Of a stretch of DNA of 42,651 bases, positions 2,655 to 40,432 are shown piece after piece (the stretch's first letter is position 1; each line of letters begins with the position of its first letter). Below the pieces are notes generated by a model that was given only the letters and a program-made list of their open reading frames with translations, was not told where the DNA came from and searched no databases. This stretch comes from Nemertoderma westbladi. Lineage: Eukaryota; Animalia; Xenacoelomorpha. A program made the position numbers and the translations under genes. Where the stretch lies: assembly GCA_032718475.1 (NCBI GenBank), contig JAUCBJ010008053.1:1-42651 (forward strand). Reading direction: 5' to 3'.

Positions 2655-3019
2655 CTGTTCAGAGTATCTTTATGTTTTAGAAACTGTGATTTTTATATTT
2701 TATAGACTGAAAATCCCATTTTCTGGGAGCGGTGTAAAAGCTTTTGCTGAATTGTCCGGTTATTTTTCCTTATTTTTCCCGTAAAGTACTCTGTAGTTGG
2801 TTTACCAGGCATAAAAAGGCCGTGTCCTTGCTGTACTGGTGTTTTAGCGGACATAAAAGCTATTTCTTCTGTATTTGTACTTTAGAGGACATAATCCGTA
2901 ATTCCGTGACGTAAAAGCTCGATACTCTTGAAAACAGTGTCGCTACCATGACGACAGCTAGCAGCTGATATTGCCACGTCGACGTTTCTTTGTTTCTCTG
3001 TTCTCTCGTTGTTCAGGTT

Positions 3020-3085
3020 GACCAATCAGAGCGTTTGTTGTCTTTGTGTTGGAGGTATATACAGAAACTCAGTAGTTCAGTGTTA
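3020..3085 (+). promoter_or_regulatory. Putative LTR Pol II promoter (CCAAT, TATA-like, TCAGT initiator)
   Basis: ACCAATCAGA at ~3021, TATATA at ~3056, TCAGT at ~3069 and ~3077. The equivalent CCAAT and Inr motifs are in the C LTR. Confidence 0.45.
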
Positions 3086-3939
3086 TGTTTTTGCCCAGAG
3101 CCTAAGAACCGGCTTTTGGTGTTTTCAGTTTTTAGTCTTACACTAGGAGGTTTAATTATAAGGACATATATCCTTTAACTACCTGACTCATGGAATCACT
3201 GCTAACTGATCATACATACTGACTGCTGAAACATTGCAAACTCATAACAATCAGTGTTCAGTTGTTGTTTTATACTGCTATTTACTGTCAGTTCTTCATA
3301 ATATGGTTGATGAATTATTATATTTGGAATAACGATAAATAACCCCGAAACCCAATATTCTTGATATACCGAAGGTAAGAGAGAAGGGTTACAGATAAAC
3401 GATTGTGACTTATGTTAAAGTGGTTTGAAGTGAATCTAATGTTATTTGATAGACCCTACATGAGTCAGTCTGTGTTCCTTTTATATGTGACTAAAATCAG
3501 TGAAGATTGGCAGATTAGTGTGCAGTATTGTGCAGCATTGTGTATGAGTGAGTCTGTTAAAGAAGCAATTCCTAAAGAATGCGCCATATATGTGAATTAT
3601 AATTAAGCCATATCGTTGTGAGTAGTTTAAGTCATAACTCTGTTTATATAGATAAAGCGCCACGTCCTAAAGGAACTGTTAATATTTCCCGAAGGTGAAT
3701 AATATTGTCAGAGATTATATAATACTGTCAGTCGAATAATACATTAGGCTTACATAGCAATAAAATTAAACCGTCGAACCCAATCTCCCGGGAATATCCA
3801 GCGGGTGAATGATCGCGCACAGATTGGTTTCGACTAGTGTAGTGAATCAAATACTTGTCATAGACTAAAAACCGATTTAATATCTAGAAGACATCTTAAT
3901 TTGGTGGGTTAAACTGCCAAAGGTCTGAAAGCGCGAACA

Positions 3940-7127: not shown

Positions 7128-7176
7128 GGGGGAAGTTTGGATTCACTGCATAAATGCAGTTCACCAAACTTCCCCC
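7128..7176. repeat. Inverted repeat / hairpin, possible MITE relic
   Basis: GGGGGAAGTTTGG...ACTGCA TAAA TGCAGT...CCAAACTTCCCCC. Confidence 0.5.
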
Positions 7177-7520
7177 GAATGCACACTGTAACTTCCCACT
7201 TCCCCCAAATATCCACTGTTGAATTAATTTGAAGCGATATAATAGTACAAAATTGTGTGAGTTTTTAATTGTGTGGTCCATTTGTTATTTGATCTCTATT
7301 TATTGTTTAAAGTGCATTTAATATCACACTGGTTTTTAGAATATTATACTATACAGCCTTATGTTTTATTAATTTATCCAATCGAAGCTTCATAAGGGCC
7401 GGTTATTTGTACGCATATCCCTAATGCGCTCAGTAAGGTCCAAACAACATATTAATATGAAAATAAATTATCTGCAAAGAAAAGAACCCAATAATACACC
7501 ATTTGACCTTATTAAATTTA

Positions 7521-8072
7521 ACCGGTTACATATAACGATTGCGACTTACATTAAAGTGGTTTTGAAGTGAATCTAATGCTATTTCATAGGCACTACATGT
7601 ATTGGTTGTTGTTCTCTTTATATGTGACTAAAATTAGTGAAGGTCGGCAGATCGGTGTGCAGCATTGTGCAGTATTGTGTATGATTGTGACTGATAACAA
7701 AGCATCTCCTAAAGAATGCGCTATATACGTGAATCCATAGCCATCCCGTTGTGTCTAGTTTAAGTCATAACTCTGTTTACATATTTAGAGCGCCACGTCC
7801 TAAAGGAACTGTTAATATTTCCCGAAAGTGAATAATATTTGTCAGAGATTATATATTACGATCAGTCGAATAATACAGTAGGCCTACACCGCAATAAGGT
7901 TAGGCTTCCAAATCCAGTCTCCCGGGTATATCCAGCGGGTGAATGGTCGCGCATAGACTGGCTTCGGCTAATGTAGTGTATCAAATACTCGTCATAGGCT
8001 AAAGTCGATTTATTATCTAGAAGACATCCAAATTTGGCAGGTTAAACTGCTAAAGGTCTGAAAGCGCGAACA
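7521..8072 (+). repeat. 5' LTR of C, truncated to its last 552 bp
   Basis: Matches 36383-36934 with about 4 substitutions by eye and ends ...GCGAACA. Confidence 0.9.
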
Positions 8073-8093
8073 ATAACAGATATTGCTTCTGTA
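8073..8093 (+). promoter_or_regulatory. Non-tRNA primer-binding position of C, complementary to its own LTR
   Basis: No TGG. ATAACAGATAT is the exact reverse complement of LTR 36208-36218, and 18 of 21 nt pair with 36198-36218 (one G-U). Confidence 0.65.
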
Positions 8094-8351
8094 TTGCGGT
8101 AGGCAATAAAGCTGAAGTACCGGTCAACCGGTACCTAGTAGGCCTGACTACCTAACTACCTGGACTGGTACTTATAGCAGTACAGGTATAGCAGTATTAT
8201 TCGATTTTGATAATTGTATACCGGTAGGCCTTAATATTTAATCAGGGACGGCCACCCTGGTTTTTTATTGAGATTTTACTTATTTCTGTCAGGTTTTATT
8301 TATTTGTAGGTTAATATTGAGCAGAAGACGTGTAAGCCTGCTCAGATTGTA

Positions 8352-9745: not shown

Positions 9746-9863
9746 TATAACGCTACACTGAGTAGCAGTATCGGTAATTAATTACTAGGCTAACAGTGAT
9801 ACTGAATTACTAGACTTGCTTAAACTGTAACATAGCAGTAGGCATTCAACTGTACAAACAAAC

Positions 9864-11615
9864 ATGTCTGACACAAAGCAAAACCTGTCAGACAGTCTCC
9901 TAGATACAACCATCTGTGACCCAGACAGGAGTGTGGAACGTGTGAGACCGAAGTTCAATTCACCTCCTACTGTAAGAAAGATCATCCCTCCAGTAGTAGT
10001 ATCAGACCCTAGGCTAGTCCAACACCGTAGGTCTATCATAGGAACTCGAGCTCAGGTCAAGCGGGACCAAGAAGCAGTGGAACAGCAGCAACACTCGAGC
10101 CGAGAACTTATTTCTCAGCGGCCCGACAGCTCCAGTAGTGCGGATACCGTAGAGCTGACACCCGAGCGCGGAGCTAAGATGGCAGATGCGGTTTATTCGG
10201 ATCCCCTTCTCATCCTTCCTGCAGCCGTACTCACTAGGGTATTGATTGCGGTGGAGGAACACCAGATTGATTGGGCGAGAAGTAAGCTAGCGACCAAGGA
10301 TAGTTATGCGGGATATACAAGGGAAGAACTGAAGTCTATTGTCGAGTCGCAATGGAACTTCCCCGGACCCGGACTCCCGTTTGACTTATTGGAAGCTGCC
10401 TGGGAAGACATACACAGGATGGGAGTGACAAAAGAAACCAGCGATTCAGCTGTATGGAAGAGGTCAGCAGCCGGATACGTGCAGGGATTCTTCAGCTCTA
10501 TGGAGCGATTGGAGGAACAATTGTTTCGACAACCACAAGGACCTCAAGAGCAGGGAGAGCTGCTTTATCAAGTTAGAGAAAGAATTCTAAGAATCAGACT
10601 AATCTTATCTGCCTTTGAGGAGGCTTCGAAAAGAAGACAACACACGTCGTTGCAAGTTTCCGTAAAGACTTGGTTACAGCGGGTGAGTCTCCAAGTTCAA
10701 AGAACTGCCCCGTGGAAATCTCAGTTGAATGAGCGCTCAACCCATGGAGAATCAACAGACGCTACCTTTTCCCAAGTGGAAAGTGAAGCGACAGCAGAGA
10801 AACCGCATAAGAGGGATGCTATTGACATCTATCTGTCAGACTATCAACGCTTTGTAGGTGATGAAGAGTTGAGGAGAAGGCTGGAAGGACTTAGCCCTAA
10901 TAGTGAAGGAGCCAAGCTTGTGTTGGACGCAATCGACGCGGATATGAGAGCTGCGAACCAAGCTAAATTTGATGAACGCCTCCGCATCGCTAGAGTCCAA
11001 GAAGAACAAGTAAAGAAAAAACGTATAGAAGACAGAAAGACAGCGGCAGTGGCAGCAGCAGTGGCAGCGGCAGAAGCGGAAAGAAAAGCGGCAGCGGCAG
11101 CGGCAGCGGCAGCAGCAGAGGCAGAAGCGGAAAGAAAAGCGGCAGCGGCCGAAGCGGAAAGAAAGGTGGCAGTGGCAGCGGCCGAAGCGGAAAGAAAGGC
11201 GGCAGTGGCAGCGGCAGAGGCAGTGGCAGAAGCAGAATGGAGAGCGTCTGAAGAAACCACCCAACTAGAATTGGAAAACATTCAGGAGAATCAAGACTGC
11301 ATAAATAAACAGTTAACAGCTAGTCAAATGCAGATAATGAGTCGATCAACTCCCAAAAGACAGGGATATACATCATCTGAGGAAGGAGATACCCCCGATC
11401 CTGAAGGCAGAGGAAATAGATCTCGTCTAAGCAGACGTAGAAGAATGTCCCACCATCAGAAATTGCCTGATTTGCCCCCAGCTGTTAGAAGGCAACTAAC
11501 TAACACAAACTTAGGTAGTACAGAACCCACAGACCAAATAATTAACATAGAAAGACTCCCTACTATAGTAGATAAGTTCTGTTCTGTTCTGTTCTCGAAG
11601 CCACCCCTTCAGTGA
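9864..11615 (+). CDS. gag: Element C Gag, N-terminal part, with Ala-rich coiled-coil repeats
   Basis: 583-aa ORF after the leader, with AAAEAERK repeats and homology to fragment F. It continues in another frame at 11612. Confidence 0.7.
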   Translation: MSDTKQNLSDSLLDTTICDPDRSVERVRPKFNSPPTVRKIIPPVVVSDPRLVQHRRSIIGTRAQVKRDQEAVEQQQHSSRELISQRPDSSSSADTVELTPERGAKMADAVYSDPLLILPAAVLTRVLIAVEEHQIDWARSKLATKDSYAGYTREELKSIVESQWNFPGPGLPFDLLEAAWEDIHRMGVTKETSDSAVWKRSAAGYVQGFFSSMERLEEQLFRQPQGPQEQGELLYQVRERILRIRLILSAFEEASKRRQHTSLQVSVKTWLQRVSLQVQRTAPWKSQLNERSTHGESTDATFSQVESEATAEKPHKRDAIDIYLSDYQRFVGDEELRRRLEGLSPNSEGAKLVLDAIDADMRAANQAKFDERLRIARVQEEQVKKKRIEDRKTAAVAAAVAAAEAERKAAAAAAAAAAEAEAERKAAAAEAERKVAVAAAEAERKAAVAAAEAVAEAEWRASEETTQLELENIQENQDCINKQLTASQMQIMSRSTPKRQGYTSSEEGDTPDPEGRGNRSRLSRRRRMSHHQKLPDLPPAVRRQLTNTNLGSTEPTDQIINIERLPTIVDKFCSVLFSKPPLQ

Positions 11616-13187
11616 TAGAGACACCTGTACTCCCTGAACCTACCTCTAAATTCCCTCTGCACAGCACTAAGCTACCTGTGTCCCACAGAACCACCCTTGA
11701 AAATGTTTATGTCCTGGACTCCGAGCGAAATATTAATGATTTGTCGCCCGTTGTCCCTCGTCCGCCCGCTACAACGTTGGCGCCTCCCGCTTCGGCGGTC
11801 GAGTGGGTAGATGAGGGACGACGGGAGATGGGTCTCCTGCTCAGGCAGCTGAGGGAACACCGTTCCCGCTCCTCTCAGCAAGTCCAGGAGATGGAGGGGA
11901 CTGTGCAGCAGTTAAAGGGAACAATTAGAGAGAGTAGGTTAGAGTTGCAAGAAGTGCAGCAAAGTATCGCGTTAGAACACGATAAATTAGTAAATACACA
12001 AAAGGGTATACCACCACCCCCTGTAACAATGTGTCAACCTGTTAGGTCTGAAGTATTTCATGCGCAAGGTGTGGAGCCTACACGCATCTATACTGCTAGC
12101 GAAGTGGAAACTCCTATAGTAAACCCTATTAAGGGTAATTATAAACCTGTCGACAATGATATCCCATATAGACTTGATAATAATCTGAGAAATTTATATA
12201 CCGATAACTCGATATTAAATAACACTATGGCCCAAGAAAGTTTTACGCGTCAAATGGCTAGAACCGAAGCCCGTCAAGCGGTAAAGGTGGGAGAGATCGT
12301 CAAGTTCAATGGAGATGAGATGAAATGGTTACCTTTTAATGAATATTACAAAGATAACATACAGAACTCTGTGCTATCAAACGGAGAGAAACTTCGATTC
12401 CTCATCGAGTGCTTGGAAGGATCTCCCAAGTTAATGGCGTTAAAGTTTATTGGACATCCCGATGGATTAAGACAAGTTTGGGATACCCTAAACATCAGGT
12501 ATGGTAATAGGAATAATATAGCTAGGTATTTGTATGCAAAATTGGTAGCGCCACGAAAATTCATTAGCAGCGGGATTATAGAGTTTTCCGATGAGATTCA
12601 AGAGATCTGTAGACAATTAGATTGGCTAGGTAAGTCTCATGAATATCAACCTACCATGGCTGATCTCATGTCATTCTTAGATGGAGAAGTGAAATTACAG
12701 CTCCTAAGGCAGTCCAGAGAGAAGACACCGGAAAACAAGGTAAGTGAGAAACCCGTTTCTAGGAGAAAAGTAACACCAGTGTGTTATACCGACGACGGCG
12801 AAAGCCAGACTTCTCAAGGAGAGGACAGCGGGAAAGACACTGAAAGATCTTATTATGTCAATAAAACGCCTAAAGAACAGGTAAGTAAATTCAAGTCTCG
12901 AACCAATGACAGGAGAGAACAGGTAAGAAAAACTCCTCCTACGTCTCCTAAGAGAATTCAGTTAAGAAAGCCCGAAGAAAGAACGAGTGTGCACAATGTT
13001 ACTCAAAATACGGTAAGTAACATCAAACCGAAATGTGCACTATGTGATGGGACCCACCGTTTGAATGTGTGTGATGAATTCCTAAGGAAATCATTAAAGG
13101 ATAGACGGGAAGTCATGTGGGATAAGCGGTTGTGTTATAATTGCCTCAGACAAGGACACCAATGGCAAACCTGTTACTCCGACGCAA
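11612..13187 (+). CDS. gag: Element C Gag core (DUF1759-like region and Cys knuckles), interrupted by element B
   Basis: KFNGDEMKWLPF...EKLRFLIECLEG...RYGN, CALCDGTHRLNVC and CYNCLRQGHQWQTC. It resumes as CAKCGAKHHLLLH after the CGCAA duplication. Confidence 0.85.
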
Positions 13188-16649: not shown

Positions 16650-19600
16650 TTATTTTATTTTTATTTTATTTGTGTGGGAAGGGCGTCTCGCCCTCAATCC
16701 CACCCCCCTCAGTCCAAATCTTGGACGACTAAACTCTACTCTAACTTCTAGCAGACAGCATTTGCCTACTGCTCTCCTGTAGGTTTTCCTGTCCTTCGCA
16801 CCTATCTTACCACCTATCCGCACTTCTACCGATCGGACTCTTCCGTCCTCATCGGAGTAGGTGCCTACAACTCTCGCCAACTGCCACTGGTTGTTGATGA
16901 TAGTATCATCCGTAACGATTACGAGATCTCCTACTCTTAACTCCCTGTTCGGCTTCCTCCACTTGCTTCGCTTATGGAGCGTGGGTAGGTATTCTTCTAC
17001 CCACCTCCTCCAATACTCTGCGCTTATTGCTTTAGCGACTTTCCAACTTTGGCGGGAGTGTATGTCATCTGGGTCTACACCCCGCATATCGATGGTCGCT
17101 GGCCTTTCCATCAGGAAATGGCTAGGCGTCAGCACGTCTAATGACTCAGGGTCATCATTCTCCGGATATAGCGGTCTGCTATTAATGATCCCCTCGCATT
17201 TCGCAAGTACTGTCCGTAAGACGTCCTCAGTGACCATGTGGGTGTTCATTAGCTTCGTCATTAGATGCTTTGAACTGCCCACCAGTCTCTCGACGCATCC
17301 TAGTGTATGTGGTGCATACGGCGTCCTTCTCTCCCACTTTACTTGTCGTCGTCTCATGGCTGCCCTGACTTCTTCTCCCTCCAAGATGTCCAAGGCCTCT
17401 GCCATCTCACTCTCTGCGCCCACAAAGTTGGTGCCGTTGTCGCTGTATATCACTGCGATCGTCCCACCTTTGCGGTCCCTAAACCTTTCTAAGGCGTTAA
17501 TGAACGCTGATGCGGTTGCATCTTGGGCGAGTTCTATCCCTACCGCCCGCGTGTTGTTGCATACGAAGATAATGCCGTAGCGTTTCTCCGTGTGTCGCAT
17601 CACTCTGATCTTTATCGGCCCGAACATGTCCACACCGCAATGCGTAAATGGTGGGTCGTGCTGTCTTACCCTACTCGCCGGTAGTGGCGTCATCTCCTGT
17701 ACGGCTCGCTCCTTCTTCGCTCGTCGGCAGGTCTGGCACTGCCCCACTACCGCTTTTACCTTTTTCCTCAGTTGTTTGACCCAATAGGTCCTCCTTATCT
17801 CTGTGAGGGTTCGGTTGGTGCCCCCATGCAATATCGATTTGTGGGAGTCCCATATAATCTGGTGGACTATTGGCGATCCTGTAGGAATGATGATGGGTTT
17901 CGGTGGTACGACTATGCTGTTGTTGTATCCCACCCTGGAATTCATTACTAGAATCCCGTCGTCATTGAGTTGTGGCGACAGCGTAATCAGCTCGCTGTCC
18001 CGTCGGAGGTGCTGTTGGTTACCGATGCGTTCCACCTCGTCGCCGTAGTTCTTCCGTTGTTCATAGCGGATCACTGCCTTGGCCGCTCCTTCCAGATCTA
18101 TGGTTGTCCTGATCTTCTTGTCCTTGCCAACTCCCGCAAGGAAATTCCCGAATGCTCTCCAGTACACCACTAGTTTCTTGGTCTTATACCAACTAGAACT
18201 GTAGCTGAGGAGTTTATCCGTCGGGTTATCGCACAGTTCTCGTCCTGGTTGCACGTCCCTAATCTCCCTCACCATCTGGGAGTATATCTCTTCTCCCTCT
18301 GAATCTCCCTCTTCTCCCTCTGACACTACTTCTGTGCCCGGGTCCACCTTTCTCATCGGCGGCCAGGCCTCCTTATCGCTCAGAAATTGTGGCCCATGTT
18401 GCCACAATACTTCCTTCTTCAAGAAAGTGTGGCGTACCACGCCCCTCGACAACAAGTCCGCTGGGTTCTCGTCCGTTGGGCAGTAGTGCCACCTTTCCAG
18501 TTCTGTGCTCGCCCTTATTTCGTCCACTCTATTCGCGACGAATATCGGGTATCTCGTCCTTTCGTTGTGTAGCCAACCAAGCACTACCATGGAGTCCGTC
18601 CAGTAGTGTGTCTCCACTATGTTGGGAATAGTATCCACTAGGTAGGCTGTGGCTCTTACTCCTAGTCTCGCGGCTGTCAATTCTAGCTTAGGAACTGATG
18701 CTGAATCTGGTGGCGTTGACTTTGCTTTGCTAAAGGCTAGTCTTGGCTTGTGAGCCCCCTCTCGTTGTACTAAGTAGAGTGCCGCTCCGTACGCTTCCAA
18801 CGACGCGTCGGAGAACATGTGTAGGTCCAGATTCGTCATGTTCCCATCCGGGAAATACACCCGTGGCATGTTGTATGTTCCCATCTTCTCCAAGTCTCCT
18901 GTCCACTTGCTCCACTGTTTCTTGATTTCCTCTGGTACCTCTACGTCCCACTCATCCTTCAGTTTGTATACTCTCTTGAGTATCTGTTTCCCCGTGACTA
19001 ATAATGGGGATGCTAGGCCTAGGGGATCGTATATCCTTGCTATATACGATACATAGCCCCTCTTCGTGTGGATGTCTGCGCCCTCCTGGCTCAGCTGATA
19101 CTTCAGTTCGTCTGTCTCTCTATCCCACACGATTCCCAATGCCTTCTGTTGAGATTCTGTTCTCTTAATCGCCATGTCCTGCCCTTTGGCTGTTGTGGGA
19201 TTGTCCATGGTCGATTCTGGTCTCCTGTCCTCTATCGCCTTAATAAATTCTTCCGAACTGGATTGGAATTTGGTCAGGTTAAAGCCGGATCCTTTTAGGA
19301 TGTCGCGAACCTCGCGCCCTGTGTCCAGTATCTCCTTAACCGTATTTCCAGACTCCATTCCGTCGTCTACGTAGAAGCCGCGTCGAATCATATCGACGGC
19401 CCTACTGCTGTATCTATCTTCCTTCCCCTTTACTGTGTCTCTCACTGCCATAGTCGTTGTAAATGAAGACGACTTGGCCCCCATGTTCTGTACTACCATC
19501 TTATATGCCGGTATTATCGACGGTTCTTCCTCGCCGTTATACCATAAGAAGCGCTGACTGTCGCTATCTTCCTCCGTTACACGGACTTGGTTGAACATGC

Positions 19601-19652
19601 CTTCTATATCACACGTGAAGGCGTGTTTTCCATTTCTAAATCTAAGTAACAC
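16650..19652 (-). CDS. pol: Element B Pol: reverse transcriptase, Pao-type RNase H and integrase
   Basis: DIEGMF, FYVDD, IYDPLG, FSDAS, PKLEL, WTDS, NPADLLSRG, H..HGG..CQTC, VDMFGP, SDNGTNF and a DUF5641-like EYLPTL...W C-terminus. Confidence 0.97.
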   Translation of the reverse strand: MLLRFRNGKHAFTCDIEGMFNQVRVTEEDSDSQRFLWYNGEEEPSIIPAYKMVVQNMGAKSSSFTTTMAVRDTVKGKEDRYSSRAVDMIRRGFYVDDGMESGNTVKEILDTGREVRDILKGSGFNLTKFQSSSEEFIKAIEDRRPESTMDNPTTAKGQDMAIKRTESQQKALGIVWDRETDELKYQLSQEGADIHTKRGYVSYIARIYDPLGLASPLLVTGKQILKRVYKLKDEWDVEVPEEIKKQWSKWTGDLEKMGTYNMPRVYFPDGNMTNLDLHMFSDASLEAYGAALYLVQREGAHKPRLAFSKAKSTPPDSASVPKLELTAARLGVRATAYLVDTIPNIVETHYWTDSMVVLGWLHNERTRYPIFVANRVDEIRASTELERWHYCPTDENPADLLSRGVVRHTFLKKEVLWQHGPQFLSDKEAWPPMRKVDPGTEVVSEGEEGDSEGEEIYSQMVREIRDVQPGRELCDNPTDKLLSYSSSWYKTKKLVVYWRAFGNFLAGVGKDKKIRTTIDLEGAAKAVIRYEQRKNYGDEVERIGNQQHLRRDSELITLSPQLNDDGILVMNSRVGYNNSIVVPPKPIIIPTGSPIVHQIIWDSHKSILHGGTNRTLTEIRRTYWVKQLRKKVKAVVGQCQTCRRAKKERAVQEMTPLPASRVRQHDPPFTHCGVDMFGPIKIRVMRHTEKRYGIIFVCNNTRAVGIELAQDATASAFINALERFRDRKGGTIAVIYSDNGTNFVGAESEMAEALDILEGEEVRAAMRRRQVKWERRTPYAPHTLGCVERLVGSSKHLMTKLMNTHMVTEDVLRTVLAKCEGIINSRPLYPENDDPESLDVLTPSHFLMERPATIDMRGVDPDDIHSRQSWKVAKAISAEYWRRWVEEYLPTLHKRSKWRKPNRELRVGDLVIVTDDTIINNQWQLARVVGTYSDEDGRVRSVEVRIGGKIGAKDRKTYRRAVGKCCLLEVRVEFSRPRFGLRGVGLRARRPSHTNKIKIK

Positions 19653-19718
19653 CTCTATGCCCGAATTGTATATGTTTGGGCCTTCTAACAGGTAGTCGTT
19701 TAAGCACTTTCCGTCGGT

Positions 19719-21457
19719 CTATGCCGATGCGTCGACTACCATCCGTAGTTTACCTTTCTTTGGATCTAAAGCCACGTGTAGTGGCAGGTAATATGTCCTG
19801 TCCGTGTTTGGCTCGTCGACCGGTAACTCCACGGCCCATCCTTTCTCGACGTACTTCTTAATTGTTCTGTGGATGTACTCATTCTTCTCGGGGCTCCGTT
19901 TTAGTGTTTGTTTCAGTTTGCGGAGTCTCGTGAGTACCATCCCCCTATTGTCGGGCAGCGGTATCTTCTGTAGTTTCCATACCATTCCTATAGTATACCG
20001 CCCCTCATTGCATGTCATCGATTCCTCCACGCTTTGTAAAGCTTGCTTGTCTTCTACTGAGGTCCCGACCCCGGTTTCTTTCAGTCCCTCGAAATCCTGT
20101 CTGAGCAGTCTTTTAAGCTGCTCCTCTGCTCCCTCGTCACCCATTTCCTGCATTGTTCCCGTGAACATGCATCCTGATGTCTCTGACATCCTAAATGGTA
20201 TCTTGCTCTTAATTGGACCACTCAGCGTCCACCCGAATGGTGTTAATATGGCCACCGGATCACTCTGCTTGTCTTCGCCGAAGACCGTTTGCATTCTTTC
20301 GTGGGCCGTTGGGCAGTCCATGCCTACTATGATGGACACCTTCCTAACATCCACGTCTGGGATTGAGAAGTCAATGTTGTCCAGGAATTTATACTGCTCG
20401 ACCTCGATGTTGGTTGGTCGCCTGGCATTAATATTAATTGACTCTATCACTTGGATGGGGTCGATGGTTGCCCCTAGTCGCATCCTGGTGCCACTGCTGC
20501 AATTGCGCACCGTCCTGTCCTCATCTCCAGGATCTCATCTTTGCTAGAGATGGTTGTTACCGCCATTCTGCTTGGCCTCATTCTCAATCCTATCTCTTCG
20601 GCCACCCATTCCTCGACTAATGTGAAGGCAGCTCCACTATCAACCAGCATTAGCGTTGTTACTGATCGATTGCCTTCCCCAATCACTCGCACGGGTACTA
20701 CTCCAAGTAGCACCGTTCCTCTCTTCTTCGCTCCTACTGTGCTCGTCGCCATCGTTTGGCCTCTTCTCTGACCAAATTTTATCGGCTTCTCCTTGCACTC
20801 CCTTGCTCTATGTCCACTCATTACACATCGCGAGCAGATATTATTGCTCAACGCATAATCTATCTGATCTTGCCTAGGTAGCGCCTGCCAGTACCTGCAG
20901 TTCATGGTTTGATGAAGCGCATTTGCGTGTAGCTGGCATTTGCTCTTTGGGTTGTAGCCCTCTTTATACAGCGCATTGCGTATCGCAGTTGCGTTCGTAC
21001 CAAAGTCCCTACTATTCTTATTGTTTGGATTCAGCCTACTGGACGTACTGGGGTTATGTTTATTCGTGCTGTTATTGTTCCCCTGTCCGTTCCATGGTGT
21101 TGTCTCATCTTCGGCTAGCTGTGGACTTGCAGTCCCCTGCGTCGCTGCATATGGCAATGATTGCCTGAGCCTCGGTAATGCGTTTGATGTATTGTGCTCT
21201 GGTTTCGGTCTATGGTAATCCGTCTTCGGTCCCTTTCCCAGGCTATCTTCGCTGTAGACTGGGTCAGTTATTAGCTCAGCCTCGTAGTTTAAGAAGTTTG
21301 ACATTTCTTCTAAACCCGGTTCCGCACCCTTCTTGTCTCGAGTGGAGAAAGCAATTTTCCTCCACTTGTTGCGCATCCAACTCGGTAGTGCCTGCGCTAT
21401 CGTGGTGATGTTATTGGACGCATTGAGCTCGTATGGCGCGTCTAGCGTCTTCAGCAC
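19719..21457 (-). pseudogene. Element B Gag C-terminus, aspartic protease and RT N-terminus; frameshift near 20500, in-frame TAG at 19719
   Basis: CSRCVMSGHRAREC, LVDSGA, TPFGWTLSGP and YYLPLH...KLRMVVDASA, which is in frame with the pol ORF. Confidence 0.9.
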
Positions 21458-21461
21458 GATC

Positions 21462-21620
21462 TGTTATATTATTTACTGTATGTGTCTTTTGTCTAGTTAC
21501 TGTTTTATAGTTTGTGCTAGTACCGTGTTTGAGTCTGTATGTGTTCTTCATTATATGCAAGCACCACTGTACAGCTGTACCTACCAGGTCAGCAGGTACC
21601 GGTATCTTTCTACTTTAACA
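21462..21620 (+). repeat. 5' LTR of E
   Basis: TGTTATATT...TTTAACA; same as 26227-26385. Confidence 0.95.
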
Positions 21621-21621
21621 A

Positions 21622-21633
21622 TGGTAGCAGAGC
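21622..21633 (+). promoter_or_regulatory. tRNA-iMet primer-binding site
   Basis: TGGTAGCAGAGC, one base after the LTR. Confidence 0.9.
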
Positions 21634-21799
21634 ATTCTGGCATTACTGCATTAACTGAAACAACCCGGTCTGCCAGTGTTTACAGTTTAATCAACTAGCC
21701 TTGTGTGTTGAGTTGAGTTGACGTTGACGGTACTGCTGATGCTGAATTTAATACCGGTACAGTAATACCGGTCAGCCGGTATTAATGTAGGCCTATTAA

Positions 21800-21992
21800 A
21801 GCGTGATGGCGCAATACTGCAATATCTGAATATATGAATGCGTAGGGTGCGTGATGGCGCAATATAGCAATCAATGAAAGCGTGATGGCGCAATACAATG
21901 ACAGAATGAAAGCGTGATGGCGCAATACAATGACAGAATGAAAGCGTGATGGCGCAATACAATTGTACAATGAATGCGTGATGGCGCAAATG
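21800..21992 (+). repeat. Six GCGTGATGGCGCAA motifs (~32-bp period) in the Copia leader
   Basis: Copies at ~21801, 21849, 21880, 21912, 21944 and 21976. Confidence 0.85.
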
Positions 21993-22171
21993 AAGATATA
22001 TTCCGGTAAAAAACAAAATTAGGTCTGACAGACTACCGGTACCGGTACTGGTTTCTTGAACTAAAACCTTCCCAGGCCTAGGGCATTATCAATTATGGCT
22101 CTAGCAATCTCCCCACTGTAGTATAGCAGTGTAGTCCTGTAGTCTACTTTAAAAATTAAAAAAAAACAATT

Positions 22172-23164
22172 ATGGCAACTTCTGCCGGGCATGGCAGAAT
22201 TCCACCACCCCAATTTAACTCTGAAACTGGGAGTTACAGAAGATGGAAAAAGGAGTTAATAGTATGGAAAACAATAACTGAAACTGCAAAGAATAAGCAG
22301 GCACTCACTGTCATACTTAACCTGAAGGGATTAGCTAAAGATAAAGCTCTTGATTTAAACATAGCCACTTTGCAAGTTGATGATGGCATTGATATACTTT
22401 TATCAGAATTAGATAAAACTTTCAAAAAGGAACGGGAGGAGGATGCATATGAAACATTTATAAAATTTCGAAATTTTACAAGAAATCATGGCATCAGTAT
22501 AAGAGATTATATAGTTAAATTTGAAACATGTGTTTGTCATCTTGCTGAATTTGACTTAAATTTTAATGATGCTATTTTGGCAGCAGAGTTAATACACAAA
22601 GCTAATCTTACACCAGCTGAGCGCAAAATAATATTAGCTACTACTAAACTAGAATTCAAAGATGTTAAGAAACATCTTCTACGAATGATGTCTGATATTG
22701 GTTCAGACAATGTGAACACAAGTACTACATTAGAAATACATGACAATGAAGGGCCTGAATCAGCCCTTTGGGGAACCAACCCTAGGAAGTTCACTTCTGC
22801 CAGTAAACCTTATACAAGTGGAACGGGGTACATCCCTAATAAATTTAAATCAAAACCATACAACAGTCAAATGTTGCCTACACCTTTAAGTAAGCCTAAG
22901 GGACCAAGTGCTCAAAATCGTTGTAGAATATGCGATTCTACTAGACACTTTCAACGAGATTGTCCACACAGAGTTAGTTGTAACATTTGTGAGTCAATCC
23001 TACATCAATCTCAGGCATGTCCTCATGATGATAACGAAACCTTAGCAGTTAAAGACAATATTGATACTGGCAATAGCAATACCTATAATGATACAGAAGA
23101 TGTTTTCCTCTTGCAGCATGTATTTCATCAACATGCATATGAGGAAAGGAACTGCATAAGGTAA
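22172..23164 (+). CDS. gag: Copia Gag with two CCHC knuckles
   Basis: PPQFN...YRRWKKEL.VW N-terminus, CRICDSTRHFQRDC and CNICESILHQSQAC. Confidence 0.9.
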   Translation: MATSAGHGRIPPPQFNSETGSYRRWKKELIVWKTITETAKNKQALTVILNLKGLAKDKALDLNIATLQVDDGIDILLSELDKTFKKEREEDAYETFIKFRNFTRNHGISIRDYIVKFETCVCHLAEFDLNFNDAILAAELIHKANLTPAERKIILATTKLEFKDVKKHLLRMMSDIGSDNVNTSTTLEIHDNEGPESALWGTNPRKFTSASKPYTSGTGYIPNKFKSKPYNSQMLPTPLSKPKGPSAQNRCRICDSTRHFQRDCPHRVSCNICESILHQSQACPHDDNETLAVKDNIDTGNSNTYNDTEDVFLLQHVFHQHAYEERNCIR

Positions 23165-23202
23165 CTGAGGTAACTGCCCCATACTCACCATTTAGCAATG
23201 GT

Positions 23203-25653
23203 ATGACCGAGCGTCATAATGGCCTCATCAAGGAAATATATCAAAGGATAAAGATGGAAAATCCAACTTATAAAGATTATAAGATTTTGCAAATGGCTTC
23301 CTTTGTTAAAAATGCCTGGCCTGCTAATAATGGATTTTCACCACATCAAATAATGTTTGGCAGAGGGCCAAATATAGGAAATATACTTACTGATAATATA
23401 AGTGCATTAGACAATGCAACTTCTGTAAGTAAGTCTGCTATTGATCATATAGCATTACTGAATCAGGTTCGAATAGAATTTGCAAAAGCGGATTCATCAA
23501 CTAGGATCCGGAGAGCATTATTAAAGAATGTAAGACCTACGAATAAAGGCATTTCTATGGGTGATAAAGTATACTATTTTTCTTATCAGGATGAAAAATG
23601 GTGTGGTCCAGCGAAAGTAGTTGGGATAAATGGAGCCGAAATATTAGTAGCTCATGGCTCGAAATACATACGAACCCATAGATCCAAAATACGAATTGAT
23701 AATGGTTATTATAATCAATATGTTTCAAATGAGAGTCCATCAGCTGATAGTAAAGAGGATTTACTATCAGAACCCTGCCAATACATTGAAGATGATGAAA
23801 TAGTACACTCAGAACATCTTATACAAGATCATGGCAGCTATAGCAATGATACTAATGAGAGAGAAACCAATGATATCCAAGATACTGCTAATTATAGCAG
23901 TAGCTTGAATTTACATCCCTTGTCAGACAATGAAATGACTAATGATAGTGTGAATACTCCTATCTCTAACTTGCAGTCTATGAATTCTAGTAATACTATG
24001 GAAGATTGTCGGAATGATGAAGAACACACAGAGCCAATTGTAGATAGAAAGCAATATCCCCGCCGAGTACATAAACCACCTGAGCGATATGGCTACTCTG
24101 CCGGTCATATTTCACAGAATAACATTGACAAGAAAATACAAGAAGAATATAGTTGTGAGGTAGCTGAGGCAAAAGAAAAAGAACTCTCCAATTGGCTGGA
24201 TAATAATGTATATACTGAAGTTGATGAGAGTGAATTATCACCTAATGCCAATATTGTATCAACAAGATGGGTAATTGACTTAAAATATGTTGATAGTATT
24301 CAAACTATAAAGGCTCGCCTTGTAGCCAAAGGGTTTCAAGATAATGATACTCCTATATCCTTTGCACCAACATGTGAGAAGATGTCAATACGGACTTTGC
24401 TTTCAGTTGCTGCTAGATTGAACTGGAAATTATGGATAGTGGATATAAAACGTGCATTCTTACAGAATGGCAAATTACCGGATGAGAGGATTGTTTATGT
24501 GATTCCACCAGAAGAATATTTGAGAGAGAACAAGAGATGTGTATACTGGAAATTGAAGAAGTCAATTAATGGTTTACATGATGCATCACGACATTGGTTT
24601 GTTAAACTTAAAAGTGAATTAGAGAAACTAGGCTGTCAACAAAACAAACTAGACCCTGCTATGTATTCCTTAATGTCAGTAGAAGACAATCTAATTGCAA
24701 TCATTGCCACACATGTCGATGATATAGCAATAGCAGGAAGCAGTGAAATATCATCTACATTTATTGATGGAATCCAATCAAATCTCAGTGTTGGAAAGAT
24801 AACAGATGTCAGTTGTAATTGGGTAAAATTTCTTGGTGTTTTCGTACGTACAATGGAATATGGTGGATTCGAAATTTCTCAAGATCCTTTCATTCAATCT
24901 TTGTCCTGTTCAAGCATGGAATCCTTTCAGAATTCAGAATCCAAGGATATATACCATTACTTCAAATCACTGCTTGGGAAATTGATGTGGATATCCACTA
25001 ACACTCGTCCCGACATAGCCTTTTTTGTGGGAACCTTATCACAGATTCAGCAACCAACGCTTAATGATATTTGTAGCTTGCACAAAATTGTCAGAAAATT
25101 GAAATGCGAAATAATTACCATCAAATTCCCTACTACTAATGACAAACTGGAATCTTTATATATATTTACAGATTCTTCATTTGGCAATCCATCTAGGATG
25201 GGTATCTGTATTTTTTGGGGATGTCATTTGATATATTGGTGCAGTCGCTGCACAAAGCGGGTAACAAAGAGTACATTATCTGCTGAGACCTTTTCACTTG
25301 TTGAAGGTGTCGATTTGGGAGGATACTTGCATGTCTTTCTTCATTCACTAACTCATTATTCGTATCCATTTGTTTACTTATCAGACCATAGGGGTCTGAC
25401 CCAAGATGTGCAGAGTGGAAAAATGTCGCAAGAGAGGAGATTATGCATTGATTTTGCATATATTCGGGATAACATTCAACTGGAAGACTTGATTTGGATA
25501 CCTACTAAACTACAAATCGCAGACACATTAACAAAATCAAGAAGTCTGGCGTCACTATTGTTAAAACGTATTCTAGATGATCCCACTTGTCTATATGAGT
25601 GTATATCTATTTTAGCTGAACACAAACATAGAAAGAAAGTAAATGTATTTTAG
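23203..25653 (+). CDS. pol: Copia Pol: integrase C-terminal half, RT and RNase H
   Basis: (TAPYSPFSNG)MTERHN, STRWV, KARLVAKGF, DIKRAFLQ, GLHDASRHW, HVDD, TRPDI, FTDSS and QIADTLTK. Confidence 0.95.
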   Translation: MTERHNGLIKEIYQRIKMENPTYKDYKILQMASFVKNAWPANNGFSPHQIMFGRGPNIGNILTDNISALDNATSVSKSAIDHIALLNQVRIEFAKADSSTRIRRALLKNVRPTNKGISMGDKVYYFSYQDEKWCGPAKVVGINGAEILVAHGSKYIRTHRSKIRIDNGYYNQYVSNESPSADSKEDLLSEPCQYIEDDEIVHSEHLIQDHGSYSNDTNERETNDIQDTANYSSSLNLHPLSDNEMTNDSVNTPISNLQSMNSSNTMEDCRNDEEHTEPIVDRKQYPRRVHKPPERYGYSAGHISQNNIDKKIQEEYSCEVAEAKEKELSNWLDNNVYTEVDESELSPNANIVSTRWVIDLKYVDSIQTIKARLVAKGFQDNDTPISFAPTCEKMSIRTLLSVAARLNWKLWIVDIKRAFLQNGKLPDERIVYVIPPEEYLRENKRCVYWKLKKSINGLHDASRHWFVKLKSELEKLGCQQNKLDPAMYSLMSVEDNLIAIIATHVDDIAIAGSSEISSTFIDGIQSNLSVGKITDVSCNWVKFLGVFVRTMEYGGFEISQDPFIQSLSCSSMESFQNSESKDIYHYFKSLLGKLMWISTNTRPDIAFFVGTLSQIQQPTLNDICSLHKIVRKLKCEIITIKFPTTNDKLESLYIFTDSSFGNPSRMGICIFWGCHLIYWCSRCTKRVTKSTLSAETFSLVEGVDLGGYLHVFLHSLTHYSYPFVYLSDHRGLTQDVQSGKMSQERRLCIDFAYIRDNIQLEDLIWIPTKLQIADTLTKSRSLASLLLKRILDDPTCLYECISILAEHKHRKKVNVF

Positions 25654-26208
25654 TTTTTTTTTTTAGATTTATATTGGGGTTCATCATGATGATGTGGGTT
25701 GAATGTTATTGATATATTATATTGTTGAAATGTTTTTCCAAATATTTCTTGCAATTATCGATACAGTAATTGATATTTTTGGAAAGGCGGATGATAGATA
25801 GACAATACTACGTAATTCCGAAAGACAGTACTGGACTTGTTATATTATATATCATATGTATGTTACATAGATTTAACTGATGGATATGCATATATGTTAG
25901 CAAGACGCTAGGCATATGTTATTTTATATGTCGTCTATTGTTATATGTTATTGTTGTACATGTGCATGTACAGTATTACGTAATTCTAAGATACATTTAA
26001 TTGGTGGCATTTCCTTGCCATTGTTTTATTTTGGCATTTAACGTATACTGCATACTTTATTTATCCATTTTGTACTTTTAACGCCAATTAAAAAAAAAAC
26101 CGAAGAGATTGGTGATATTGTTATGCTATATATGTTGGTGTGGTATTTGTAGCGTATATTGTCCTATACATACTTGATTTATCCATTTATTACTATGGAC
26201 ACCAATTT

Positions 26209-26385
26209 AAGAAAGACCGAAGAGATTGTTATATTATTTACTGTATGTGTCTTTTGTCTAGTTACTGTTTTATAGTTTGTGCTAGTACCGTGTTTGAGTC
26301 TGTATGTGTTCTTCATTATATGCAAGCACCACTGTACAGCTGTACCTACCAGGTCAGCAGGTACCGGTATCTTTCTACTTTAACA
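26209..26385 (+). repeat. PPT and 3' LTR (26227-26385) of E
   Basis: AAGAAAGACCGAAGAGAT|TGTTAT... Confidence 0.9.
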
Positions 26386-30460: not shown

Positions 30461-30501
30461 GGTTACTGAGTTTATCTAGGGCGGCAGCTGGGTTTAGTTA
30501 C
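30461..30501 (-). promoter_or_regulatory. Non-tRNA primer-binding position of B, complementary to its own LTR
   Basis: The leader forms an imperfect ~41-nt inverted repeat with 30669-30710, starting at the first base after the LTR. No TGG. Confidence 0.7.
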
Positions 30502-31042
30502 TGTGACGGGATCCAAGAGGGATCCCGGTTTATCCGGTTTTAGTTCACGCGTCCCCGCCGTGTATAAAGAGTAAATGAGTTTATGCTGTTCTTCGTATAT
30601 AATATTACGATATGCAGATATAGATATAGATATGAGATAATATTGTCGTATACGGAAGGCGGGATACGGTAACTAAAGTCCCGGTCCTTCCCTAGCTAAA
30701 CTATGTAACCTTATCTAGCACCGGTATTGCACTGAGATAACTGAATTGGTATGATTACTGCCAAGTGGCTATATTGCACGGTTGGCCTTGTTACTCTACC
30801 TAATCGATGCCTTTCCCCCCTCTGATTGGTTGATACCCTTGTTGGCGCCCTTTGGAGTGTTCCCGTTCACTCCACCTATTCTCTCTGGGTTAGGGGTTTG
30901 GCCCCTGACCCTCATTGTGTGCTTCTCCTTCCCATTCTTATTGGGATGGCACGAGTTGGTTAATTACCCAATCTCGTGGCTCCCAATATTGCTTATCGGC
31001 TTACAACTTTATGGGGTGTTAGCGGGATTGAATAAGCTAACA
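30502..31042 (-). repeat. 5' LTR of B
   Basis: TGTTAG...GTCACA on the minus strand, TCAGTT Inr at 30744-30739, and CGCAA TSD. Confidence 0.95.
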
Positions 31043-32617
31043 CGCAAGGTGTGCGAAGTGCGGTGCAAAACATCATCTCTTGTTGCACACTGAATTCGAA
31101 AGAAACAGCCCGAGTCAGGTAACTGATTCCGAACTACATGTCCAATTCAGTGATGTGAACGACACTGACCAAAGTTCTGAGATGGAAGGATTCTATACGG
31201 ATGAATTCTCCGACGAAGATGAATCCTGTTACATGATAAATACCGCAGTGTATCGAGCACTTACGTATGAAAAAGACACAGACAGCGACCTCACCCTAAC
31301 TACTTCTGATCGACAACCATCTTGGAAAGCGCCAACTTCCAATGTAGGAATCCGAGAATTTCCTGTAGTACAGTTAAGGGTCCACGGACCTAAAAGGAGT
31401 TATATAGTGAACACCCTCCTTGACTCCGGTAGCACAGGAACATTCATCGACAAAGAACTAGCCGAAGACATCTTTGCTGGACAACCCAAGTTCCGAACTA
31501 AGTTAAACATGTCAGGAATTATGCAGGTTTGGAAATCTACAGTAATAGCCGATTATTATGTAGGTGCGTTGTCCACCCCCCAGGATGAACTAGGAGAACA
31601 CAGTATAAGGTCAGTAAAAATGGTGGCGATAAAGAACTTCGCTACCAGCCAAGTAGAACCTTATAACTGGGATGAGGACGATTCCACCCAGCAGCTTAAT
31701 ATACCTAGATTCACCACAGACTACCCTGGAGTGCAAATACTCATCGGCCAAAATGCGCATGAGGCGCTTGAGACATTGGAGAAACGGCCTGCTCAACCGC
31801 AACCACTACAAGCCTATGCGGGAAGAACTAGAGTAGGTTGGTACTTTACTGGCCCTTCCCGTAGAACTCTCATAGAAAGATTACCAAAAGAACAGGTATA
31901 TCAAGTAAAGGAATGGGAAGTAGAGAGCAGTGAGGTAGACGACCCAACTGAGGGAACACCATACTCCTCAGATAATGACAATATTAACTCCAATGTAGAT
32001 CAATGGAGACATTGCCCCGAGACGATTAATCTAGCCGACATCGCTTCCAGAGGAGCAACTCCTCAAGAACTGACAGATACTCCAGACTGGTTAGGTGGAC
32101 CCGACCTCCTAAGTAAAGAAGATGAATGGCCTCCCCATTTTACCACGGCTGAGATTAGACAAGCCAAGGGAGCGGAGAAAGTCAAACCTAAAACCCGGAC
32201 GTGTAAATCAAGGTTATTTAAACCCGTGATAGATCTGTCTGTACTACACATTGCCAGGGACGACGCTGTGGATCTAAACTCCCCCACCGCGAACCGATCT
32301 GTTGTGGAGATCAGAGAGAGAGACTGGAGATCTGGAACACCAGACGTCTCGCCGGGACTCTCACCTCTCCTGCCGGGAGCGATGGACCACTATAGATCCT
32401 GGAATCGGCTTCGTAAGGCCGTCGTGTATTTGAAGTGATGTTTCTATCGTCACTATTCCAGGACGAAGAGGAAACCTGGAATTGTCTTCGAGACACAGCA
32501 GCTCAATCGCCCAGTTGGTCGTTTATGTTTACTGGAAAGAGACCGAGAACTGTCCGGAAACTATGGAAGGCAAGATACTCTTCCCACGACCACCTCCCTA
32601 ATCCAACAAACATCTAG
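31043..32617 (+). pseudogene. Element C gag end and protease fused to RNase H-downstream and integrase-end remnants
   Basis: LLDSGSTGTFI and RTRVGWYFTGP lead directly to QWRHCPETINLADIASRG and SWNRLRK. No YVDD or DDE core. Confidence 0.85.
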
Positions 32618-35625: not shown

Positions 35626-35934
35626 CTGTTTAGAGTATTTTTATATTTTAGAAACTGTGATTTTTTATATTTTATAGAATTAAATCCCATTTTCTGGGAG
35701 CGTGTAAAAGCTTTTGCGGGATATAACTGGCCCTTTTCTCCGCAATGTACTGTGTAAGGTGTTTTTAGAGGACATAACTAGCGATTTATCCGCTGTGTCT
35801 GCATGTGTGCTTTAGCGGACATAAAAAGCCAGTTTTCCCACAATGCGCTCAAATACTCTAAACTACCTAACTCAAATGACGCAATCTACCAACCGATTTG
35901 CTGTACGCCTATAGGCTCTTTGTTCTGTTCGATC

Positions 35935-36116
35935 AACCAATCAGAACAATGATCCACCAATCAGAGCAATTTCGCCTTGTGTTGAATATGGGCTGCAAAA
36001 ACCCGAATAGTTCGGCATTTAGACATTCGTGGAACCTACAGAATCTGGAACTCGGCCAATGAGAGCTGTTTCTCTTTGTGTTGAAAGATACCTACAACAG
36101 CCCAGAGGGATCAGTT
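35935..36116 (+). promoter_or_regulatory. Putative LTR promoter: three CCAAT boxes and TCAGTT initiator
   Basis: CCAATCAGA at ~35937 and ~35957, CCAATGAGA at ~36056, TCAGTT at 36111-36116. Confidence 0.45.
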
Positions 36117-37861
36117 GTGTTGGTTTTCCCGAGCCTAGAAGACCGGCTTTGGAATCTCTGTTGTTTCAGGCTTTAGCCCAAGATTAGTAGGCTTAATTAT
36201 AGAACGTATATCTGTTATCTTACTCACTCACCTAATCATATTGTCAACTACAAACACCGCATTTTTACTGCTATTTACTGTCGGTTATTCATTATATCAG
36301 TTGATGGAATATTATTATATTTGGAATATCGATAAATAATTACAAAACCCTCAATCTTCTTGATATACTGAAGGTAAGAGAGACCGGTTACATATAACGA
36401 TTGCGACTTACATTAAAGTGGTTTTGAAGTGAATCTAATGCTATTTCATAGGCACTACATGTATTGGTTGTTGTTCTCTTTATATGTGACTAAAATTAGT
36501 GAAGGTCGGCAGATCGGTGTGCAGCATTGTGCAGTATTGTGTATGATTGTGACTGATAACAAAGCATCTCCTAAAGAATGCGCTATATACGTGAATCCAT
36601 AGCCATCCCGTTGTGTCTAGTTTAAGTCATAACTCTGTTTACATATTTAGAGCGCCACGTCCTAAAGGAACTGTTAATATTTCCCGAAAGTGAATAATAT
36701 TTGTCAGAGATTATATATTACGATCAGTGGAATAATACAGTAGGCCTACACCGCAATAAGGTTAGGCTTCCGAATCCAGTCTCCCAGGTATATCCAGCGG
36801 GTGAATGGTCGCGCATAGACTGGCTTTGGCTAATGTAGTGTATCAAATACTCGTCATAGGCTAAAGTCGATTTATTATCTAGAAGACATCCAAATTTGGC
36901 AGGTTAAACTGCTAAAGGTCTGAAAGCGCGAACAGGGTTCGATGCACAGGACCTAGAGGCGATGGGATGGGACAAAGACGTCCCTGGCGAGTATCGGTAA
37001 GGGAATGGGGAAGAGTGGATGGCGAGGTATCCAGAGAGATGTCTGGAAGAGACACCGATCTTAGAGGGCATAACGAATATACCGATACAAAGGAGGTCGA
37101 ATAAGAAGACAAGGTGGAAAGGGAGAGGATGTAAGAAGGTTAATCCAAAGGGATAGGAGCCAATGACGAAGGGTGACAAAGGAGACAGCAAAGTTAGAGG
37201 AGATGTGTTGCACACGGGGCTGGCAGAATGCGAGGGGGCATTAAATGGTAAGCCATTATGCGTACCGAAGGATGACCAAGGGTCATCGGGGGCTTTAACG
37301 CCGGCGCACATATTGAGGGGGAGGCCAGCAGAGGTGGCATGTACCAGTGATGATGACATGAAGGGCGGCATTCTACCGCCAAGTGATGACACGATGAAGG
37401 GTGGTGAGACGGGATGGGTGGAGGGTGGGAAGACAATGAGGAGTTCTGTGAGGAGATAGAAAGATCCGATCTTAGGGTGGAGGAGAAGGGAAAGTCAGAT
37501 CCAAGAGATTTGGAATCGATAAGGAGAGTGTGGCGGAGAATAAGAGGAACTACAGGGGGGCAGTGGGAGAGTTGCCTGCTGGAGGAATTGCCCTTAGGTT
37601 GTTGAGTCGTCCAATATATTGGACTGAGGGGGGTGGGAATGAGGGCGAGACGCCCTACCAACACACTAAACAAAAATAAAATAAAAATAAAATAAGTAGT
37701 AAAACATTAGTAGCAAGGTACGCTGTAGGTATACATTATGTACGTCTGATGGGTATGGATGTACCAATGTACATAATACGATGGTGGTACATAGGTGTAG
37801 GTAGTTACAATTACGTACGTCGGACGGGTGCAAAATGTACCAACGTACCTAATTTACATAC

Positions 37862-39803: not shown

Positions 39804-40432
39804 TGTAAGCGGATTCAATTCCCTGCACTACCCAGCGGAAAATGGGCGAAGTGGCATTTTACCAATTATAGTTTGGAAGGTGACATTACCAATAATAATG
39901 TCACCTAATAACCAACTTAGGCGATACACATCGCCAGCCACAAAGAAAGATGAGAGGTCTTAAACCATCTCAGAGGGACAAAGGGGCTAGCAGGGCTAGC
40001 ATGTGGGGATAGTGGCAGCAGGGAGTAGCGAGATAGACATTAATCGGGTTAGCCAATGATGGGAGGGGAAAACAGGTGATTGGAACGCATCTACTGGCCA
40101 GGCCACTCAATACAGTAGCTGTGATTAATATGTGTTAATAATATATAACCGTTGTACTTGTGAATTATGATTCAGTTGGTTTCTATACAGTTGTGAGACC
40201 GGAACGGTTTTTAACCGTCGTCATTACCGTGCTATTATATTCTGACTGTGCTATTATTATGTTCTGTGATTATAACAACTGACACTAAAAACTCAGTTAT
40301 TCCAACGGCCTTCGGCCTATTATATTTTATTCAGACCACAGCCTTTCAGCAGCCTATGGACGCGGCGACGCGTATAATACCAAGACAACACACCGGTCGG
40401 AGTTTAGCAACCAACTCCTAAATCCCGTCACA
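39804..40432 (+). repeat. 3' LTR of D (629 bp) after a G-rich PPT
   Basis: GGGGGGGGGGGAG|TGTAAGC...CCCGTCACA; TATATAA at ~40143 and TCAGTT at ~40172. Confidence 0.85.

Follow-up and report, generated by a model that had tools for sequence, protein, structure and literature searches.

Probable Tf1-like self-priming in BEL/Pao retrotransposons, with a primer often built by predicted splicing

Introduction

The ICTV describes the BEL/Pao retrotransposons as Belpaoviridae (Semotivirus), LTR elements of animal hosts with the order gag-PR-RT-RH-IN, a purine tract and an 18-nt binding site for tRNA-Arg or tRNA-Gly. They are held to be tRNA-primed, and their replication is poorly understood (PMC8742986). 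How would such an element start reverse transcription if its leader carried a complement of its own LTR in place of a tRNA site? The question is raised by contig JAUCBJ010008053.1 of Nemertoderma westbladi, whose entire 42,651 nt were analysed and are called the window below. The answer that we hold with considerable confidence is that BEL/Pao elements include Tf1-like self-primers, that the primer is often built by splicing, and that element C of this window is the intron-less form. Self-priming of the Tf1 kind is known; its probable occurrence in BEL/Pao is what is new here relative to the literature, and the departure from the tRNA-primed ICTV description is the core of the finding. The original prediction, made for element C, missed the predicted intron that splits the complementary LTR stretch (the arm) in many relatives.

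Elements in the window

The window is a nest of LTR retrotransposons with the following main parts.

1-3939, element A, 3' part of a relative of C
2733..3939, plus strand, 3' LTR of A, 84% identical to C over the 3' 670 nt
7521 to 36934, plus strand, element C
7521..8072, plus strand, remnant of the C 5' LTR, its first 680 nt including the arm being absent
9831..13187, plus strand, gag region of C, two overlapping frames with DUF1759 and Cys-His motifs, split by element B
16650..21463, minus strand, protease and pol of element B (RT, Peptidase_A17/RNase H region, integrase, DUF5641) in three reading frames
21462..26385, plus strand, nested Copia with a TGG-type primer site at 21622, an internal control
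30502..31042, minus strand, 5' LTR of B, 541 nt
31043..32438, plus strand, gag end, protease-like region and short RNase H-end remnant of C
35703..36934, plus strand, 3' LTR of C, 1232 nt, TG...CA, preceded by a purine-rich tract
39804..40432, plus strand, 3' LTR of element D, a distant relative of B; the leader of D lies outside the window

Element B belongs to BEL/Pao (Belpaoviridae), since DUF1759, an aspartyl protease, RT, Peptidase_A17, integrase and DUF5641 are all present, in the order PR-RT-RH-IN. Its integrase follows RT/RH, unlike the Copia order. PF05380 is found in all 120 homologues of B listed, and the named hosts among them are cnidarians, molluscs, echinoderms, a barnacle, a nemertean, a fluke and fishes, at 30-35% identity. 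B sits on the minus strand within the gag of C, and the Copia, with identical LTRs of 159 nt, lies in turn within B; of element D (to 40432), a B relative, only the 3' part is present. The LTRs are of the TG...CA type and are accompanied by a purine tract, as in BEL/Pao, and a 5-bp target duplication is seen for B only, the 5' end of C being missing. A domain search gave no chromodomain match in the window's elements, and neither tRNA genes nor Rfam matches were found in the window.

Element C is a non-autonomous BEL/Pao derivative, because it combines a DUF1759 Gag with a protease-like region and lacks RT. Domain and sequence searches found neither RT nor an integrase core in it, and its RNase H-end remnant has 56 residues. 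The two LTR copies are 99.3% identical over 552 nt, 8072 corresponding to 36934 and 7521 to 36383 in the 3' LTR. Thousands of public contigs align to the C family. Downstream of the coding remnant of C, about 2.7 kb are common to A (5-2747) and C (32975-35717) at 86% identity, with no ORF of 150 codons; the high contig depth over this stretch suggests a very abundant non-autonomous family. Another repeat, abundant as judged by contig depth and contig ends, adjoins the truncated 5' LTR of C at 6452-7516 and may be the cause of its deletion.

The arm and the leader

The arms and putative primer-binding sites are placed as follows.

3168..3178, plus strand, arm of A, unlike the C arm at 3 of 11 places, which leader variants in public contigs match
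8073..8083, plus strand, putative primer-binding site of C, leader bases 1-11, without a tRNA-type TGG
30493..30501, minus strand, putative primer-binding site of B
30669..30677, minus strand, arm of B, 9 nt, 167 nt before the LTR end
36198..36204, plus strand, possible extension of the C arm, 7 pairs with 8087-8093, where some family leaders differ
36208..36218, plus strand, arm of C, read in the 3' LTR and predicted to be the end of the self-primer, 716 nt from the LTR end

As originally predicted, the leader of C at 8073-8083 is the exact reverse complement of the LTR at 36208-36218 and starts at the first base past the LTR end. The seven further pairs with 36198-36204 are also found, one of them a G.U pair. 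The arm can indeed be read from the 3' LTR only: the 5' LTR begins at 7521, the equivalent of 36383, so its arm is missing. The two-strand duplex of arm and leader has a predicted energy of -19.8 kcal/mol (-10.5 for the 11-mer alone), and when the LTR is scanned in 30-nt windows with a step of 5, the leader finds its best site in the arm region. In 5000 dinucleotide shuffles of the C 3' LTR, the 11-mer occurs in 7. An empirical control over the whole window was set aside, as it contained the LTRs themselves.

In element B, the first 9 leader bases match the LTR at 30677-30669, which 6 of 5000 shuffles equal, and neither the B nor the C leader starts with TGG. B and C had been regarded as independent cases. 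This is true of their sequences, as their LTRs do not match each other; it is probably not true of their origin, both elements being BEL/Pao. The Copia, described originally as keeping a normal tRNA-iMet site, does have a TGG one base past its LTR, read here as a site for tRNA-iMet.

Arm and leader are 716 nt apart in C, against 167 in B and 91-236 nt in the 15 relatives described below. No splice joint lies within the arms of C or A, which contain no AG. A donor-like AAG|GTAAGA is common to both elements, at 36374 in C, about 155 nt past the arm, and at 3375 in A; judged by its motif, an intron starting at 36374 could shorten the long loop of C.

Co-variation in A-type leaders

The arms of A and C differ at three places, and a leader that pairs fully with the A arm would need changes at 8073, 8077 and 8078. 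Such a leader had been forecast for full-length A-type elements. Public contigs from four of the seven listed runs were aligned to 8030-8130, and variants were listed at a threshold of at least 2 per 100. Only five variable places are listed in these 101 nt: 8073 A>T, 8077 C>A, 8078 A>G, 8084 T>A and 8098 G>A. Those at 8073, 8077 and 8078 are just what pairing with the A arm requires, so the forecast was right in its three letters; the leading G that it allowed as an option is absent from the list. The opposite outcomes, A-type elements with only the leader of C or with a tRNA site, were not seen in the public contigs. A rough hand calculation, for three set places with set letters among five variable ones in 58 leader bases, puts the coincidence at about 1 in 100,000.

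The variants at 8073, 8077 and 8078 are carried by 32, 17 and 42 contigs in X1, which is possibly the window's own sample, and by 12, 7 and 18 in X3, from another study. In X5, which bears a different organism label, each of the five variant rows is one contig, with a depth of 16.6, and X4 has no leader coverage past 8077. The changes matter for pairing, the A arm forming a duplex of -2.3 kcal/mol with the C leader against -10.5 for the C arm, and an A at 8084 would give a twelfth pair. The G at 8078, which could also form a G.U pair with the C arm, is commoner than the A at 8077. A arm and variant leader lie on separate contigs, the arm being about 700 nt from the leader, so the co-variation is one at the level of the family; at that level the A-type pair keeps all 11 pairs across 16% LTR divergence. 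X5 also contains two further leader types at 8073-8083, seen as loose ends.

Predicted splice-built arms in distant relatives

Forty pol proteins were aligned, leading to 78 loci from metagenome contigs (the best 80 of 633 confirmed, 17 of 64 parts having been scanned). In 51 loci the sequence upstream or between elements exceeded 300 nt, and 46 regions were left after exclusion of the near-duplicates L051, L062, L040 and L020 and of L029, in which the match begins in mid-pol. Several loci share an accession series and may share hosts, and they are counted as families, not as independent hosts.

Read by eye, LTRs show a predicted GT...AG intron with its acceptor within the arm. The regions were also scanned blindly, with any ACA as LTR end, an offset of 0-4, any fitting donor and acceptor, and at least 3 nt of complement on each side of the joint. 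A spliced arm of at least 11 nt was found in 14 of the 46 regions, compared with none in the antisense control, none in the same-sense control, one with wrong splice motifs, and 0-3 in each of twelve shuffles (5 in sum). At 10 nt the count is 15 of 46, against 1, 2 and 3 in the three controls and 0-3 in the shuffles. In the 15 matches, for which the loop limit was narrowed to 260 nt, the arm has 4-8 nt on the donor side of the intron and 5-8 nt on the acceptor side; the introns measure 94-426 nt, the loops 91-236 nt and the offsets 0-3. The donor motif is a filter of the scan, so the donor consensus is no separate evidence. The automatic best match of L054, a chance 11-mer with a 312-nt loop, was rejected in favour of the match at the LTR end fixed by L051.

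Unspliced, the same LTRs would pair over only 5-9 nt. Each leader matches the joint of its own family over 10-13 nt (mean 11.3) and those of other families over a mean of 1.8 nt. Only 4 of 210 cross pairs reach 10 nt (L002/L041 and L034/L066), each between members of the same clade. The arm ends in AC (12) or AT (3), the next base is C or G in 14 of 15, and the leader starts with GT or AT in all 15. By their sequences, these 15 distant families would thus appear to build the primer by splicing, with a predicted GT-AG intron splitting the arm. Three further spliced arms were seen by eye (L006, L026 and L067), and LTR ends are fixed independently by LTR pairs in L050, L051, L030 and L026.

No spliced match was found in 31 of the 46 regions, many of which lack part of the LTR or leader; L001, L010, L012 and L078 are ambiguous by eye. 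Only the donor half of the LTR is assembled in L009 and L070, and there the bases before the donor complement, by eye, leader bases 6-11 (L009) and 8-15 (L070), as the splice-built model expects. The tRNA-type sites were seen in L004, L020, L023 and L043, which form one clade (support 1.0), and in L059, outside the tree. Three separate parts of the tree contain spliced arms, one of them near the tRNA-site clade, and element B is on a long, unsupported branch. The tree is midpoint-rooted, without named references, and so gives no order of events. Scans of viral contigs found no relatives.

Intron-less arms were read by eye in the 3' LTR of L030 and in L027, L036 and L072; in the blind count they show no enrichment (3 against 2 antisense at 11 nt), and a first blind scan for unspliced arms of at least 10 nt was noisy and gave mostly chance matches. 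The 3' LTR of L030 lacks the intron that its clade members L066 and L034 carry at the same joint. The 5' LTR part of L030 (1-326) has an intron end, and its 3' LTR (6694-7103) is without an intron and has an 11-nt arm. L030 is so a recombinant or a chimeric assembly, because its two LTRs are only 88% identical and the intron end is present in the 5' copy only.

Folding and alternative explanations

Two stretches of C bear on the folding of its leader.

7882..7896, plus strand, U5 stretch complementary to the C leader at 8092-8104
8092..8104, plus strand, leader side of a possible U5-leader stem in C

A U5 inverted repeat, or U5-leader stem, reportedly belongs to Tf1-type self-priming (Lin and Levin, 1998), and a similar stem had been proposed for C. 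The complement is real, with 13 Watson-Crick pairs, a 2-nt bulge and -19.0 kcal/mol for two strands; the stem itself is absent from the predicted fold of 7860-8125, a piece without the arm, in which its pair probability is at most 0.04 and forcing it costs 3.6 kcal/mol. Bases 8092-8093 would be needed by both the arm extension and the U5 stem. The loose ends of other C-family copies would pair with U5 without a bulge, and the U5 complement varies in family contigs. In a fold of the natural LTR and leader of B, the predicted partner of the arm is a U5 stretch rather than the leader, the arm-leader helix having a probability of 0.01-0.13 and lying 0.5 to 3.1 kcal/mol above the lowest-energy fold. 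Upstream of the B arm, LTR bases 30690-30710 are predicted to pair with the leader at about 30461-30482, beyond the primer site (minus strand). From these models, the second pairing and the U5 competition for the arm make a conformational switch in B possible.

The competing helices predicted for B and C would suit another reading, in which the arm-leader helix is a conserved RNA structure that serves packaging, dimer formation or control of polyadenylation in the 5' LTR, and priming is by a host RNA or some other route. The loose GT or AT start shared by all 15 leaders could be taken the same way, priming being read here from the nucleotide sequence. We consider this reading unlikely. In every match the helix begins at, or within 3 nt of, the LTR end, which is where a primer must end, and each family-specific leader fits its own arm alone, a pattern that no fixed host RNA could follow; moreover, the relatives with a tRNA site show no spliced-arm match at all.

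That the C family is dead or copied in another way, its pairing a relic of a self-priming ancestor, is very unlikely. The copy in the window lacks RT, its 5' LTR is truncated and insertions are nested in it, as might be expected of a relic, but a dead family does not readily account for thousands of contigs, for LTR copies that are nearly identical or for an A-type pair conserved in full while the LTR diverged.

It is scarcely plausible that the complement is a short inverted repeat left, without function, by template switching or copying during reverse transcription. Plus-strand copying of any primer would rewrite its binding site, so that co-variation need not mean selection. A copy taken from DNA or from unspliced RNA would not, however, match an exon-exon joint in 15 families, and B and C have no alternative tRNA-type site.

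A chance match in AT-rich sequence would be eased by complements of only 9-11 nt, by long LTRs and by the many LTR ends and splice pairs tried in the relatives, but it carries negligible weight against the shuffles (7 and 6 of 5000), a forecast borne out at three set places, and 14 of 46 regions compared with 0-1 and 0-3 in the controls; the original prediction already called chance unlikely, from two different sequences with one architecture.

Proposed mechanism

Self-priming in C is modelled on Tf1, from which the steps of fold-back, cleavage and priming are carried over. The 11-nt leader of C is the likely binding site for a primer from its own LTR RNA. After fold-back of this RNA, a cut just behind the arm would create a new 3' end on the LTR boundary, and extension would start there. 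The cleavage would probably be made by the RNase H of an autonomous partner, whose RT would be borrowed too.

In the intron-bearing families, the primer would be made by the host, through splicing of the 5' LTR copy. An arm split by an intron would likely make the primer a longer, spliced and capped fragment, and on sequence grounds the arm is probably not the transcript's opening 11 bases, because it spans the predicted splice joint. The RNA would carry the intron a second time, at its 3' end, because an AATAAA-like signal lies 7-73 nt past the arm in 8 of the 15 families. This 3' LTR copy would stay mostly unspliced, so that the intron is inherited; pairing over so few bases, it might not compete for the site. 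Occasional splicing of the 3' copy would give intron-less LTRs, such as the 3' LTR of L030 and those of C, A and B. Since the primer would be copied in plus-strand synthesis, changes in the arm would be carried into the binding site, and co-variation would follow.

On balance we lean towards a wider form of this model. A broad animal branch of BEL/Pao would have exchanged tRNA priming for a self-primer put together out of two LTR exons by the host spliceosome. The intron would make the 5' and 3' LTR copies of the RNA unequal, so that only the spliced 5' end primes, and the intron-less C, A and B would have arisen through splicing of the 3' copy, with a ready-made primer that co-evolves with its site.

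Relationship to known systems

Tf1 and Tf2 of Schizosaccharomyces pombe, Tj1 and the Tf1/sushi group of Ty3/gypsy have no tRNA site, and about 11 nt adjoining the LTR complement an LTR stretch (PMC7175516, PMC4600332, PMC5341516); in Tf1 it is the first 11 bases that form the pairs with this site, and RNase H cleaves the RNA between bases 11 and 12 (PMC7175516). C and B are similar in that their putative primer site adjoins the LTR, complements the LTR and is no tRNA site. The context of the arm end in the relatives, AC or AT followed by C or G, is kept at the presumed position of a Tf1-like RNase H cut. Unlike Tf1, these elements have BEL/Pao domains and no Ty3/gypsy chromovirus proteins, and would work like Tf1 without being members of its group. 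They also differ in that the arm spans a predicted splice joint in the relatives, in that the C arm is so far from its site, and in that the system is predicted here from DNA.

Self-priming has been described for Tf1/Sushi and predicted for Tcn1 and TAR (PMC6317226, PMC4600332, PMC5341516, PMC2864245, PMC6934838, PMC5443660). The plant elements Tcn1 (gypsy) and TAR/Houba/Osr-1 (Ty1/copia) were predicted to be self-primers by an LTR complement of at least 10 nt that starts 0-5 nt past the 5' LTR (PMC6317226). C has such a complement, and B, with 9 nt, is just short of it. Tcn1 and TAR/Houba/Osr-1 belong to other superfamilies, and the accessible part of that paper mentions no intron-split primer (PMC6317226); element B does not have the Copia domain order of TAR/Houba. 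Unlike the Belpaoviridae as described by the ICTV, B, C and at least 15 relatives are without a tRNA site, and C is without RT.

Searches of openly accessible article text found no report of self-priming in BEL/Pao elements or of a primer built by splicing. The main texts of four BEL/Pao surveys (PMC3118150, PMC554778, PMC6238403, PMC8556966) contain no PBS or priming terms, and PBS is mentioned only generically in PMC8220671.

If the preferred reading is true, a third LTR superfamily also self-primes, in several clades, which bears on the order in which self-priming and tRNA priming arose; hairpin priming may predate tRNA priming, as PMC3601003 suggests. Building the primer by splicing would couple reverse transcription to the RNA processing of the host and evade control by tRNA fragments, and it would account for BEL/Pao elements for which annotation tools would report no tRNA site. 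To this the window adds a forecast of arm-site co-variation that came true in an intron-less, non-autonomous family, and the survey of loci extends the splice-built form to 15 or more families.

Other features of the window

The 3' end of B (13188-14437) is rearranged into a partial LTR (184 nt), a duplicate of about 530 nt of the C interior (31043-31572) and a whole LTR, and this block is 98% identical to 30502-31572. A tandem array with a 21-nt unit occupies 40862-42651 and reaches the window end. In D (40142-40178) and B (about 30773-30741, minus strand), motifs read by eye, which we take to be TATA-like and initiator-like (TCAGTT), lie about 30 nt apart, upstream of the arm positions, hinting by their sequence at a transcription start upstream of the arm.
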